A stretch of DNA of 64,000 nt from an uncultured Clostridia bacterium. GTDB taxonomy: Bacteria; Bacillota; Clostridia; Christensenellales; UBA1242. Made by a program: the position numbers and the translations under genes. The stretch is from NCBI GenBank assembly GCA_947624415.1, contig CANQKH010000005.1, positions 17,072 to 81,071 on the forward strand. The letters run 5' to 3'. The notes under the pieces are model-generated. The model saw nothing but the letters and a program-made list of their open reading frames with translations, had not been told where the DNA came from and did not search any database. Below, piece by piece: positions 1 through 2,819 of this stretch; the stretch's first letter is position 1, and each line of letters opens with the position of its first letter.

Positions 1-396
1 TTGACTAAATCCATCGTTATTTTGCAATTTTAAGGGATTTTTTCGCAAAATTCCAGCGTTTTTAGATAAATTTTTCATAATTATGCTATGAATTTTAATT
101 ATATCGTTTACGTCATATGGATTTAATTTGTCAATGTTATTAAATGCTTCCTCTAAATTTAGCACATATTGCTTCTTGTCATAATCGCCATTTGTGTTTA
201 AAATTTCATTAACCCTTTCTGGCGATATTTCAATATCTTCTAGCGAAAGATTTGCACATATTGTTTTAATTTTATTTATTTGTTTCAGCCTTGGATAAGA
301 TTCAAGTTGACCATAGGAATAAATTTGTCCCAATTTTTCCATAATTTGAGAAACTTGGTCTAAAATTTCATCTGTAATATCGTATTGATTATTCAT
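1..396 (-). CDS. Fic-family protein, N-terminal part (runs off the window edge; not in the ORF track)
   Basis: Manual translation from ATG at 396 is open to position 1: MNNQYDITDEILDQVSQIMEKIGQI…RLKQINKIKTICANLSLEDI…DIIKIHSIIMKNLSKNAGILRK. This matches the typical N-terminus of Fic proteins. RBS GAGG lies upstream. The catalytic HPF motif would lie outside the window. Confidence 0.65.
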   Translation of the reverse strand, partial: MNNQYDITDEILDQVSQIMEKLGQIYSYGQLESYPRLKQINKIKTICANLSLEDIEISPERVNEILNTNGDYDKKQYVLNLEEAFNNIDKLNPYDVNDIIKIHSIIMKNLSKNAGILRKNPLKLQNNDGFSQ

Positions 397-415
397 TTTT
401 GTAACCTCTTTTTTA

Positions 416-444
416 ATTATACACTCTTTTTTCGACAAAATCAA
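416..444 (-). promoter_or_regulatory. sigma-A-type promoter for the Fic-like gene, with a Spo0A-box sequence (TGTCGAA) in the spacer
   Basis: Minus strand reads TTGATT-17 nt-TATAAT; TGTCGAA at 431-437. Confidence 0.5.
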
Positions 445-445
445 C

Positions 446-539
446 TTTTCTTGCACAATATTTTTATTTTTTCTTACACATTATGTTAATCAAAATGCAT
501 ATTGCTACACATTTTCATATGCTTTTTCTTGCACATTAT
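446..539. repeat. three imperfect 16-bp direct repeats TTTTCTT(G/A)CACA(A/T)TAT
   Basis: Copies at 446-461, 469-484 and 524-539, plus a degenerate copy around 501-516. Confidence 0.55.
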
Positions 540-591: not shown

Positions 592-620
592 TTGACAATT
601 TTTAACGTGTTTGATAAAAT
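592..620 (+). promoter_or_regulatory. sigma-A promoter of the radical SAM operon
   Basis: TTGACA-17 nt-TAAAAT with extended -10 TG; RBS AAGGAG before ATG at 645. Confidence 0.7.
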
Positions 621-644: not shown

Positions 645-1433
645 ATGTTAAAAGAAGTTAAAAGCAGAAAATTTGCAAATGGAATTGTATATGCACTTAG
701 GACGGAAGATGATTATCCGCTTGAAGTTACCGACACATTTTTGCCATATTATACTAAAGATGCAATTGGTAAAAAGCAAAATGCACTTATGTCATATGAG
801 GTTGGGGACAGGACTGAAAGGTGGATGATTGGGGTGTCGTGTATGTCGGGTTGCCCAGTTCACTGTAAATTTTGTGCGACTGGTCAACTTAAAAAGTTTA
901 GAAATTTGACAGCGGAAGAAATTTTTGAGCAAGTTAAGTTTATACTTGATAAAAATCCCGATTATGACCCTAAAAATTCAAAAGAATTTAAAATAAACTA
1001 TACAAGAATGGGCGAGCCTTTCTTAAATATTGAAGAGGTAAAAAAGGCTATTGAGATGATAAACGCCATTTATCCAAGCACCCATCACTACATATCAACA
1101 ATAGGCATAAAGGGAAGTGATTTTAGTTGGATAAAGGGTAATATTACTTTGCAGATTTCCCTTCACTCACTTGATGAAGAAAAGAGGAATTGGCTTATAC
1201 CATTCCATAATAAATATACAATCGAGGAACTGGGGCAGATAAGGACGGAAAGCAATTTGAAAACCACATTGAATCTTACATTAGTGGACACAAGTGATTT
1301 TGACATTGAAAAATTGCAAAAATATTTCGATAAAGACAAGTTTTTCATAAAATTATCGCCAATTAATGAAAATGCTGTGTCAGAGGGTAATCATCTTGGC
1401 AAAGGGGTTATAAAAGGAGTTAATTTGATATAA
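645..1433 (+). CDS. RlmN/Cfr-like radical SAM enzyme lacking its C-terminal AACGQL segment (large subunit of an apparently split enzyme)
   Basis: VSxxxGCPVHCKFCATG (CxxxCxxC), RMGEPFLN, ISTIG, ISLHS and IKLSPIN are collinear with RlmN motifs. The protein ends at 262 aa without the catalytic Cys motif. Confidence 0.85.
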   Translation: MLKEVKSRKFANGIVYALRTEDDYPLEVTDTFLPYYTKDAIGKKQNALMSYEVGDRTERWMIGVSCMSGCPVHCKFCATGQLKKFRNLTAEEIFEQVKFILDKNPDYDPKNSKEFKINYTRMGEPFLNIEEVKKAIEMINAIYPSTHHYISTIGIKGSDFSWIKGNITLQISLHSLDEEKRNWLIPFHNKYTIEELGQIRTESNLKTTLNLTLVDTSDFDIEKLQKYFDKDKFFIKLSPINENAVSEGNHLGKGVIKGVNLI

Positions 1434-2224
1434 TGGCTGTAAGAGAGGGTATATTTAGATATCGTATTATTACAAATTTAAATTGTAATATGAATGAAAG
1501 CACGGGTCCAAATGGAAATTGTTACTTTTGTTATCAACCCAACAAACAACCTCTAATGCTTGATTATGACAAGGCAAAAGAAACAATGGAGAAAGTTGGT
1601 GTTTTGAAAAGGGCAACAATAATGGGTGGAGAAGCGACAATTCGTAAAGACCTTGTGGATTTTATAAAACTTGCAAAATCATATGTTACAAATGATGTTT
1701 GCCTTGTTACAAATGGAATTTTGCTTAATGAGGAGAGGATAAAAAGTTATAAGGAAGCGGGACTTACAGAGGTTGCAATTTCCATATCATCTCTTGAACA
1801 ATATTACAGAAGACGAGAGCAGGCACTATTATGTAAAAAATACATTCCAAACACACGAATTAATATTCCAAAATGCAAAGAAAGCACAGGTGATAAACTT
1901 GTTGAGTTATTAAAAGTGATATTGACAGATGATTTTTATGTGATAGTTTGTGAAGATTTAATGGGAAGATATGGTGATTTTGATTTTCAAATAAAACTTC
2001 AAGCAAAGAAAATTAAAGATGATGGATGCAATTTTTATGATTATATTTGGAATGGACATCAGTTTGGGGTGTTTGGGAACTATATTGGTTATGATGACAC
2101 AGACATAATAATCACTCCCATTGGAAACTTTTGCAAGTGGGAGATGTATTGTGAAAAAGTTGGCAACTGTGGACTTAACAAAACGCAAAGTAGTGTAGAT
2201 AAAGATGGAATGCCTGAAAATTGA
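1433..2224 (+). CDS. radical SAM protein with atypical Cx11Cx2C cluster motif
   Basis: TNLNCNMNESTGPNGNCYFCYQ, IMGGEAT, LVTNGILL, VAISIS; TAATG overlap with the upstream gene. Confidence 0.8.
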   Translation: MAVREGIFRYRIITNLNCNMNESTGPNGNCYFCYQPNKQPLMLDYDKAKETMEKVGVLKRATIMGGEATIRKDLVDFIKLAKSYVTNDVCLVTNGILLNEERIKSYKEAGLTEVAISISSLEQYYRRREQALLCKKYIPNTRINIPKCKESTGDKLVELLKVILTDDFYVIVCEDLMGRYGDFDFQIKLQAKKIKDDGCNFYDYIWNGHQFGVFGNYIGYDDTDIIITPIGNFCKWEMYCEKVGNCGLNKTQSSVDKDGMPEN

Positions 2225-2648
2225 TTTTGGCTGTGGTTACAAACATAAAGAAGGTTACAAAACCTGCGACATAACCAATTTACCAAACCTTGACTACTAT
2301 TACGATGAGGAAAATGACAAAATTTTGTATCTCGGTGAATCATCAGTTGACGAGTTTTATTTGAGGAATGTTGTCCATCATATCAAAGATATAACAAAAA
2401 CTTTCCATTGTTTAGATAAATATTTGAAAAAAGGTGCTATAATTACAATAATTGATGTTCGAAAGGAGTTTTATAAAGAGAATTATTATCTTGATAACCT
2501 TTGGTATAGAATTATAATTCCCAGAGAGGAGATATGGTTTAGCTCAACCTATAGGGATTACTTTAAAATACTTGAAGAGATGAATTACCAAAAAGTAAGT
2601 TATAGTATAGAAGAGGAAAAGGAGGTGAGTATATGGAAAAAATTATAG
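2205..2648 (+). CDS. class I SAM-dependent methyltransferase
   Basis: Motif I KIDFGCG, SVDEFYLRNVVHHI, LKKGAII. Confidence 0.8.
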   Translation: MECLKIDFGCGYKHKEGYKTCDITNLPNLDYYYDEENDKILYLGESSVDEFYLRNVVHHIKDITKTFHCLDKYLKKGAIITIIDVRKEFYKENYYLDNLWYRIIIPREEIWFSSTYRDYFKILEEMNYQKVSYSIEEEKEVSIWKKL

Positions 2649-2752
2649 AAGCACTTGCAAAATGCGGATATGATTATGCTATTGCAATAGCAACCAAGGC
2701 TGAAATTGAAGCCGGTGCTGCGTGCGGACAATTAAGCATAATCATCGAGTAA
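2633..2752 (+). CDS. 39-aa peptide equivalent to the RlmN/Cfr C-terminal catalytic-Cys segment: MEKIIEALAKCGYDYAIAIATKAEIEAGAACGQLSIIIE
   Basis: Strong RBS AAGGAGGTGA at 2619-2628, ATG at 2633, TAA at 2750-2752, immediately followed by a terminator. Contains AACGQL. Below the ORF-track size cutoff. Confidence 0.85.
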   Translation: MEKIIEALAKCGYDYAIAIATKAEIEAGAACGQLSIIIE

Positions 2753-2784: not shown

Positions 2785-2819
2785 AAAAAAACTCCAAGTT
2801 GCATTACTTGGAGTTTTTT
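2785..2819. terminator. bidirectional intrinsic terminator
   Basis: AAAAAAACTCCAAGT-TGCATT-ACTTGGAGTTTTTT between convergent genes. Confidence 0.85.

Follow-up and report, generated by a model that had tools for sequence, protein, structure and literature searches.

Does the peptide adduct have to be permanent? A split, RlmN-like radical SAM family with a detached Cys-loop peptide and no C118 equivalent

Must a radical S-adenosylmethionine (SAM) protein of the RlmN type that lacks its second cysteine remain bound to its substrate? The question is raised by ORF1, the first open reading frame (ORF) of a small gene cassette found in 64,000 nucleotides (nt) of DNA from an uncultured gut bacterium of the Clostridia (assembly GCA_947624415.1, contig CANQKH010000005.1, positions 17,072 to 81,071), a stretch denoted here in its full length as the window. 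RlmN is the C2-methylase of A2503 in 23S rRNA and of A37 in tRNA, and the two-cysteine ping-pong mechanism of RlmN and Cfr is textbook knowledge. To our knowledge, these two are the only class A radical SAM methylases that have been studied. A first-pass annotation of the window had described ORF1 as an RlmN-like subunit with a Gly seven residues before the first cluster cysteine (position -7, that of C118 in RlmN), a Cys at -4 instead, and the counterpart of the methyl-carrying C355 on a small separate peptide. From these features it was proposed that the adduct between peptide and substrate could be permanent, unless the cysteine at -4 resolved it. The evidence described below leans against the permanence of the adduct and sets aside the cysteine at -4 as a general means of resolving it.

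ORF1 belongs to a single tightly packed unit of four genes on the plus strand, ORF1-ORF2-ORF3-ORF4. Its best family match is TIGR00048 (RlmN; E 3e-24), which spans ORF1 residues 57-196 and profile positions 102-244 of 355 and gives 85.6 bits against a cut-off of 290; the Cfr profiles TIGR04432 and NF000424 gave 52.4 and 55.9 bits against cut-offs of 550 and 530, and the sole match in PHROGs was phrog_24834, of unknown function. An AlphaFold model of ORF1, made from 38 homologues (predicted local distance difference test, pLDDT, 93.5; predicted template modelling score, pTM, 0.90), superposed through its residues 1-262 on residues 79-349 of E. coli RlmN (3RF9), with Z 23.0, a root-mean-square deviation of 2.6 A, 231 aligned residues and 26% identity. 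In the structural ranking of this model, seven RlmN entries reached Z 21.2-23.0, Cfr reached Z 16.1 and other radical SAM families 12.6 at most, while the top 11 Foldseek matches were all RlmN or Cfr. Because RlmN entries head the ranking and the alignment begins at RlmN residue 79, ORF1 is an RlmN-type barrel with the beta-extension that lacks the N-terminal domain. The absence of the RlmN N-terminal helical domain, already noticed in the first-pass annotation, is equally visible in the TIGR00048 match, which starts at position 102.

The region in question, residues 58-77 of ORF1, reads ERWMIGVSCMSGCPVHCKFC. In HMMER alignments to solved RlmN chains, Gly63 (codon 831-833, ggg) falls under the C118 column (drttvCvsCqvgC in 6fz6; dratlAvssqvgC in 4pl1, the E. 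coli C118A mutant) and Cys66 (840-842, tgt) stands at -4, just as had been read from the translation; the cluster cysteines are Cys70 (852-854), Cys74 (864-866) and Cys77 (873-875). The claimed insertion before this strand is present and highly conserved, but its length is about 16 residues (11 + 5) in a MAFFT alignment rather than about 20. The comparison with RlmN (TIGR00048; 3RF9/3RFA, 4PL1/4PL2, 5HR6/5HR7, 6FZ6) can be put as follows. ORF1 and ORF4 have in common with it the barrel and beta-extension, the CxxxCxxC motif, the conserved Glu before the strand (E27 in ORF1), the GEP and SLH motifs and, in ORF4, an AACGQL loop with the methyl-accepting Cys position; ORF1 differs in having no N-terminal domain, Gly for C118 and a Cys loop that is a separate 39-aa protein, together with the insertion of about 16 residues. 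Cfr (TIGR04432; 9P0P) has the same class A fold and follows a two-cysteine scheme (C105/C338). It is a weaker match to ORF1 than RlmN is, with the same three differences as from RlmN, and there is no reason to expect antibiotic resistance from ORF1.

The loop that ORF1 lacks is found in ORF4. This peptide carries the sequence AACGQLS, in which Cys31 (2723-2725) is the sole invariant cysteine, and in alignment its AACGQL sits on the xACGQL motif of the last helix-strand-loop of RlmN. ORF4 is conserved over its full length: 18 sequences share 15 invariant columns, the variation being at the two ends, and the ACGQ motif occurs in 68 of 69 distinct peptides. Comparison with 11 homologues gave 0.08-0.28 for non-synonymous (pN) and 0.46-1.1 for synonymous (pS) differences and a median dN/dS of 0.14 (36 of 66 pairs computable); ORF4 is under purifying selection. 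The claim that the C355-type loop stands on a small separate peptide holds well beyond the window: among the 93 loci whose downstream sequence is 200 nt or longer, which are the basis of all counts of downstream peptides, the peptide lies downstream of ORF1 in 88 and no more than 60 nt from it in 44, and one of the five misses has the peptide upstream.

In the window, ORF4 is translationally coupled, with an AGGAGG about 9 nt upstream of it. The ORF4 profile matched the C-terminal Cys-loop segments of two single-chain relatives over 30-35 columns, with a probability of 91% and E 1.1e-6 for P0257 and of 72% and E 3.4e-5 for P0178, and in the single-chain relatives aligned by ORF4 the RlmN profile reaches positions 345-352 of 355. 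These alignments support the view that the ORF4 loop would be equivalent to the Cys loop of the fused relatives. Moreover, a natural circularly permuted fusion exists (P0124; 2 cluster members, 3 contigs), with the peptide N-terminal to an ORF1-like core. Because it is coupled in translation, conserved over its length and fused in some relatives, ORF4 looks like a 1:1 subunit of ORF1, onto which it would dock.

Two sets of homologues were used to follow positions -7 and -4 across the family. The first consisted of the best 120 of 3403 database matches (true RlmNs are included in the 3403), which share 70-98% identity with ORF1 and have nearly the same length; the second, of 98 distinct ORF1 proteins from genome, viral and metagenome loci. 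The residue at -7 is Gly in 120 of 120 of the best matches and in 98 of 98 locus copies, so that the absence of a C118 equivalent, claimed at first for ORF1, is a property of the family. In an ORF1 alignment of 154 distinct rows, the three cluster cysteines (C70, C74, C77) are the only invariant ones, and two rows do not have Gly at -7, namely the outlier P0125 (Asn) and an RlmN-like paralogue from locus L024 (Cys). The L024 paralogue is a second, different RlmN-like protein (282 aa), encoded in this phage locus from 8943 onward.

Position -4 behaves differently. An alignment of homologues had been proposed as the check on its cysteine and, once made, it found the residue not to be conserved: Cys, Thr and Val occur 92, 22 and 6 times among the best 120 of the 3403 matches, and 52, 34 and 12 times among the 98 distinct locus copies. 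ORF1 is intact in the Thr and Val forms and the peptide is kept with them (32 of 34 for Thr and 8 of 9 for Val, compared to 48 of 50 for Cys), and four-gene cassettes like that of the window are found with Cys (23) as well as with Thr (10). Canonical RlmNs having C118 also show Cys, Thr or Ser at -4. Since the Thr and Val forms keep an intact ORF1 and the peptide, and only 52 of 98 copies have the cysteine, the suggestion that the -4 Cys is the resolving residue fails as a general mechanism; since C118-bearing RlmNs themselves vary at this place, the -4 Cys is not a displaced C118 either. To judge from the alignments, -4 is a tolerant strand position, taken by Cys, Thr or Val, and would have no catalytic role. 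With the cysteine not conserved, the finding that could have overturned the idea of an adduct falls away. Two members are unusual: P0122 (601 aa, metagenome), which has an intein-like insertion right after the cluster motif and whose residues 65-311 match intein-containing radical SAM models, and an ORF1 homologue (L013, 4001-4648) that diverges after about 118 residues and is a truncated or disrupted copy.

The relationship of ORF1 to proteins that do have C118 was addressed with the 150 best 50%-cluster representatives for ORF1, 90 of which have a complete motif region. At -7, 35 of these 90 have Cys (11 with a fused Cys loop), 26 Gly and 29 another residue (8 with a fused Cys loop). A maximum-likelihood tree of 92 rows is divided by a single branch (SH-aLRT 97), with the 36 rows that have Cys at -7 all falling to one side of it and the 56 C118-less rows all to the other. 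Single chains that lack C118 and carry a fused Cys loop account for 8 of the 90 representatives, and four of the 8 are also isochorismatase-family fusions (P0178, P0215, P0259, P0270); the isochorismatase fold family includes nicotinamidase. These four, P0257 and P0210 have no Cys at -7 and possess a C355-type loop that aligns with ORF4. Unlike ORF1, they are one chain; they stand on the other main C118-less branch and are 32-39% identical to ORF1. In further fusions, a second radical SAM domain accompanies an ORF1-like core (P0140, whose cluster has 46 members) and a thioredoxin-reductase-like flavoprotein accompanies a C118-less core (P0254), and no named-family match was found for the C118-less fusion proteins. 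A fusion of an RlmN-like core with an HD phosphohydrolase (P0247) was also noted among the C118-less or related fusions. Considering the single-branch split and the fusions, the absence of C118 is an old, stable state of a large radiation with ordinary-looking multi-domain enzymes, and no recent defect.

How, then, could the adduct be resolved? In the current view, as given in a review, C118 of RlmN is a general base whose deprotonation step triggers homolytic fragmentation, and the C355 thiyl is reduced afterwards by an unidentified donor; in the crosslinked structure the attacked carbon lies straight in line with C118 (PMC9692996). If C118 acts as a base and the C355 thiyl is reduced from outside, the second cysteine would not be chemically obligatory and, therefore, turnover without it is favoured. 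The reading that we tentatively prefer, with somewhat less than even confidence, is ordinary turnover in which another base or solvent works in the space left by the invariant Gly.

The fold of ORF1, the split, the lack of C118 and the variation at -4 were observed here, as were conservation, gene neighbours and fusions; from them we infer the following chemical steps and substrate. ORF1 and ORF4 would together make up one radical SAM enzyme of the RlmN type (class A-like), one half, ORF1, forming the barrel with the [4Fe-4S]/SAM site and the other, ORF4, supplying in trans the methyl-accepting Cys31, equivalent to RlmN C355. In a first step, Cys31 would be methylated by SAM. In the second, another SAM would be cleaved and the 5'-deoxyadenosyl radical would yield a Cys31-S-CH2 radical which, in the third, would add to an sp2 ring carbon of the substrate, placed under a lid (residues 33-60). 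In the last step, the other base or solvent would take the ring proton, the C-S bond would fragment and the Cys31 thiyl would be reduced by an outside electron donor. This would make the peptide a subunit that can be used again, and the product would be C-methylated. ORF2 and ORF3, enclosed in the window by the ORF1/ORF4 pair, presumably act on the same substrate.

As for its nature, a small nucleotide of nicotinamide adenine dinucleotide (NAD) metabolism, with an adenine or pyridine ring, is a likelier substrate than rRNA or tRNA. The first part of this proposal derives from the gene neighbours, since NAD genes adjoin the pair in 13 of the 98 loci, none of which is the window, and in 10 of 54 among those with at least 3 kb on both sides. 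RNA is considered a less likely substrate because the RNA-binding N-terminal domain is absent and the genome has its own canonical RlmN. The NAD genes found are those for NAMPT, NMNAT-Nudix, NAPRTase, NadE, NadK, a NadD-like protein, an isochorismatase-family protein and NADAR. Several phages have NAMPT and NMNAT-Nudix directly upstream of the pair, one locus has an isochorismatase-family gene and NAPRTase (L030) and another NADAR (L026). In two bacterial loci from metagenome-assembled genomes (MAGs), L007 (1945-8371) and L008, the order on a single strand is pncB-nudix-[ORF1-ORF2-ORF3-peptide]-nadE-nadK-nadD-like. NAD salvage genes are used by phages against NAD-depleting defences. NAPRTase/NAMPT and NadA were not found in the 90%-complete assembly to which the window belongs. 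A literature search outside the subscription journals returned no split or C118-less RlmN-like family and no radical SAM partner of phage NAMPT.

Several observations weigh against turnover by a split enzyme acting on an NAD-type nucleotide. One is that C118 in RlmN and C105 in Cfr are described in the same review as essential, their loss abolishing activity and trapping the adduct (PMC9692996). By analogy with the only studied members, the default expectation for an enzyme without C118 would be a stalled crosslink. The groups that might replace the base, the near-invariant charged lid residues D30, K38, D39, R56 and R59, are only candidates. Regarding the identity of the peptide, an hhalign comparison of the ORF4 profile with the genome's own RlmN covered 7 columns, those of the motif (probability 7.6%, E 0.0046), and a profile search of PDB sequences with the ORF4 peptide found no RlmN; the shortness of the piece makes such direct statistics weak. 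The tree comes from a quick search, is unrooted and was made from the 150 best ORF1 matches, so that it is biased towards the relatives of ORF1. The NAD association is no more than suggestive: only a minority of loci show it, and many of these belong to related phages; in the window itself there are no NAD genes beside the cassette, whose neighbours are Fic, GNAT and dCMP deaminase genes, and the NadE gene of the genome lies on another contig. Finally, phage copies are found near tRNA clusters and RNA ligase genes, which leaves some likelihood for an RNA target.

The strongest competitor of ordinary turnover is the original proposal that the reaction stops at the crosslink, the 39-aa peptide staying on its target through a methylene thioether as a consumable tag. 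Its chemical premise was confirmed: in RlmN C118 mutants the reaction indeed halts at a covalent C355-RNA adduct, the C355-CH2-adenine adduct persisting in the C118A mutant, and C118 (C105 in Cfr) is needed to resolve the crosslink (PMC9692996). In addition, neither ORF1 nor ORF4 contains a further conserved cysteine, the Cys loop comes as a detachable piece in 88 of 93 loci, where a consumable tag would explain a separate and cheap gene product, and the invariant Gly at -7, instead of drift to any residue, would denote selection for an empty position. The E. coli C118A/S mutants (4PL1, 5HR6, 5HR7), in which the crosslink persists, resemble ORF1 in being without the same side chain; however, they are the laboratory dead end of a two-cysteine enzyme, whereas the Gly of ORF1 is selected, invariant and family-wide. 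A coupled, overlapping frame at the end of the operon, or one directly after ORF1 (44 of 93), suits a 1:1 subunit better than a tag, and the loop-fused relatives (P0124; 8 of 90), some of them multi-domain, would lose a whole enzyme per event. The C118-less state is, furthermore, common to many relatives, loop-fused single chains included, and appears to be old. Stoichiometric tagging would also make little sense if the target were a millimolar metabolite, and C118 is now seen as a base (PMC9692996), one that other groups could replace. Altogether, we regard a reaction that ends at the crosslink as unlikely. It is similarly doubtful that the pair represents a natural crosslinking system in which, with nothing in the place of C118, the peptide becomes joined by a methylene thioether to the adenine or pyridine ring of an NAD-type nucleotide, or to RNA. 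If that were true, a peptide-nucleotide conjugate would be used by phages and some bacteria in the contest over cellular NAD; such a conjugate would be a novel type of covalent biomolecule, and its formation a novel outcome of class A radical SAM chemistry.

A further possibility is that ORF1 is a tRNA or rRNA adenine C-methylase, with recognition and resolution contributed from elsewhere, such as a cellular thiol, a thioredoxin or a phage partner. The nearest fold and family are indeed those of RlmN and Cfr, and E27, the cluster loop, GEP and SLH are all kept. To the tRNA and RNA ligase neighbours mentioned above can be added a thioredoxin gene that follows the pair in L032, but this occurs in that locus only. 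Given that the RNA-binding domain is missing in all members, that the genome already holds a canonical RlmN (357.6 bits) and that the bacterial operon context in L007 and L008 is one of NAD biosynthesis, this reading seems decidedly improbable.

It could also be argued that ORF4 is not a subunit at all but a substrate, either a peptide of the RiPP type, made on the ribosome and altered after translation, or a cofactor precursor, modified at or near Cys31 by ORF1, ORF2 and ORF3. PqqA and PqqE exemplify such a pairing of a cofactor-precursor peptide with a radical SAM enzyme. The locus, in which a methyltransferase and one or two radical SAM enzymes accompany a small conserved peptide, fits this picture, as do NCBIfam peptide-maturase matches of ORF1 and ORF2, which are weak (E 0.0019 or worse; 15-17 bits against cut-offs of at least 300). 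However, the 30-35 columns over which ORF4 matches the fused relatives are those of their C-terminal structural unit, and ORF1 stops where that unit is missing. Moreover, the centre of the peptide is conserved and its ends are variable, with no leader/core layout, no protease or exporter gene was found among 133 neighbour proteins, and most copies are in phages. This interpretation is, in our opinion, very unlikely. That ORF1 is a decayed, inactive RlmN remnant and ORF4 a chance small ORF might be suspected from the score far below the family cut-off (85.6 against 290 bits) and from the lost catalytic residue, but it is effectively refuted by the conservation data (best 120 of 3403 matches 70-98% identical and near ORF1 length, 530 metagenome stretches, invariant cluster and SAM motifs, purifying selection on ORF4) and by a confident model. 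A role in 2-methyladenine cobamide synthesis was supported by no neighbour and was discarded.

The features of the cassette are collected in Table 1. The promoter-like site ahead of ORF1 is a consensus match only, and the number of such sites in the region (19) is not far above that in shuffled sequences (13.1 +/- 3.4). The hairpin that follows the cassette is likely a two-way terminator; it emerges from folding and was not listed by a pattern scan for terminators.

Table 1. Coordinates of the cassette and associated features in the window.
Feature	Position	Strand	Description
Promoter-like site	592..620	+	TTGACA, 17-nt spacer, TAAAAT, TG before the second hexamer; 11/12 matches; ahead of ORF1
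ORF1	645..1433	+	262 aa; RlmN-fold radical SAM core without N-terminal domain, C118 and C-terminal Cys loop
Conserved insertion (putative lid)	741..824	+	ORF1 residues 33-60 (helix 35-43 and loop), family-specific; just before the strand ending at Gly63
Strand and cluster loop	810..885	+	Within ORF1; Gly63 at the C118 position, Cys66 at -4
ORF2	1433..2224	+	263 aa; second radical SAM protein, beginning in an overlap with the ORF1 stop
ORF3	2205..2648	+	147 aa; small class I SAM-methyltransferase-like protein; 20-nt overlap with ORF2
ORF4	2633..2752	+	39 aa; putative detached RlmN-type C-terminal helix-strand-loop; 16-nt overlap with ORF3
Hairpin with flanking A run and U run	2786..2819		-18.4 kcal/mol, z -5.0 (folding); between the cassette and the convergent dCMP-deaminase gene

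In the window, the cassette is flanked by comEC-holA-GNAT-Fic on one side and by the convergent dCMP deaminase gene on the other. The Fic and GNAT genes stand between comEC-holA and the cassette (window positions 1-456, minus strand, and the upstream part of the contig, L123), the Fic-domain gene giving a weak SoFic-like PADLOC match. In the sole congener with a cassette (G010), the latter adjoins a pseudouridine-synthase-like gene instead. A defence island was considered, on account of the SoFic-like gene upstream and of a viperin-like ORF2, and rejected because there is no full-length match to any such system; PADLOC returned no match for ORF1, ORF3 or ORF4. Among the other loci, the pair comes after an SPFH/band-7 gene and a 108-aa gene in the crAss-like Kehishuvirus 'tikkala' (L035, 4446-6914), two other phage records label the ORF1 homologue itself 'prohibitin family protein', and a Cas12f/TnpB-like gene lies close to the cassette in L017 (8042-9508).

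ORF2 matches MoaA, viperin and Tes over its N-terminal half only (E 5e-15 to 2e-10) and its C-terminal half matches nothing. The viperin profile aligns ORF2 residues 27-125 with positions 11-107 of 257, NF038283 giving 40.1 bits against a cut-off of 180. ORF2 shares with the MoaA, viperin and GDGT-MAS enzymes the N-terminal half of the radical SAM core, but all scores are far below the family cut-offs and the cluster motif is different. Indeed, this motif is non-canonical and lacks the first Cys of CxxxCxxC (C18-x11-C30-x2-C33; 27 of 27 distinct homologues), the spacer being of 5 residues (C-x5-C-x2-C) in the homologues of L010 and L039; C90, C173 and C240 are also invariant. ORF3 corresponds to a minimal class I methyltransferase (phrog_5399, E 7.5e-21). 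The second radical SAM partner is a recurrent and exchangeable companion, since other loci carry a different radical SAM gene at that place, and it is fused to the ORF1-like core in P0140. In some phages (L018, 5817-7165; L044, 5798-7022; L069, 5796-7022), the different radical SAM gene located between ORF1 and the peptide is preceded by the gene of a protein of 105-150 aa with a Ser/Gly-rich C-terminal tail, the last residues of which are ...RSPC or ...SRC; this arrangement resembles another enzyme/Cys-tail pair inserted within the first one.

The distribution of ORF1 is sporadic in bacteria. Of 36 other genomes of the genus, one has it, at a different chromosomal place; it was found in none of 24 other families of the order and, at E <= 1e-40, in none of 400 genomes drawn across the phylum. 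Homologues are present in 18 viral contigs, 43 phage records and 530 metagenome stretches, and the carriers include, besides bacteria, both crAss-like and jumbo phages; the homologue of the crAss-like Kehishuvirus is 69% identical to ORF1. ORF1 being rare in bacteria and common in phages, the copy in the window is an accessory cassette, probably derived from a phage. A contig labelled as a Thorarchaeota MAG (L012) contains an ORF1 homologue with 66% identity amid many small unannotated ORFs, with no peptide gene in the 724 nt downstream of it, and could be a phage-like contig binned with an archaeon.

All these observations define a very large and strongly conserved family in which the methyl-carrying cysteine resides on a detachable peptide and the second cysteine is never present. 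For the ORF1 of the window, the cysteine at -4 can be set aside. The recurring NAD salvage neighbours provide a concrete list of candidate substrates. In whichever way the adduct is resolved, the answer bears on the role of C118, as a base or as a disulfide partner, and it would extend class A chemistry to new substrates.

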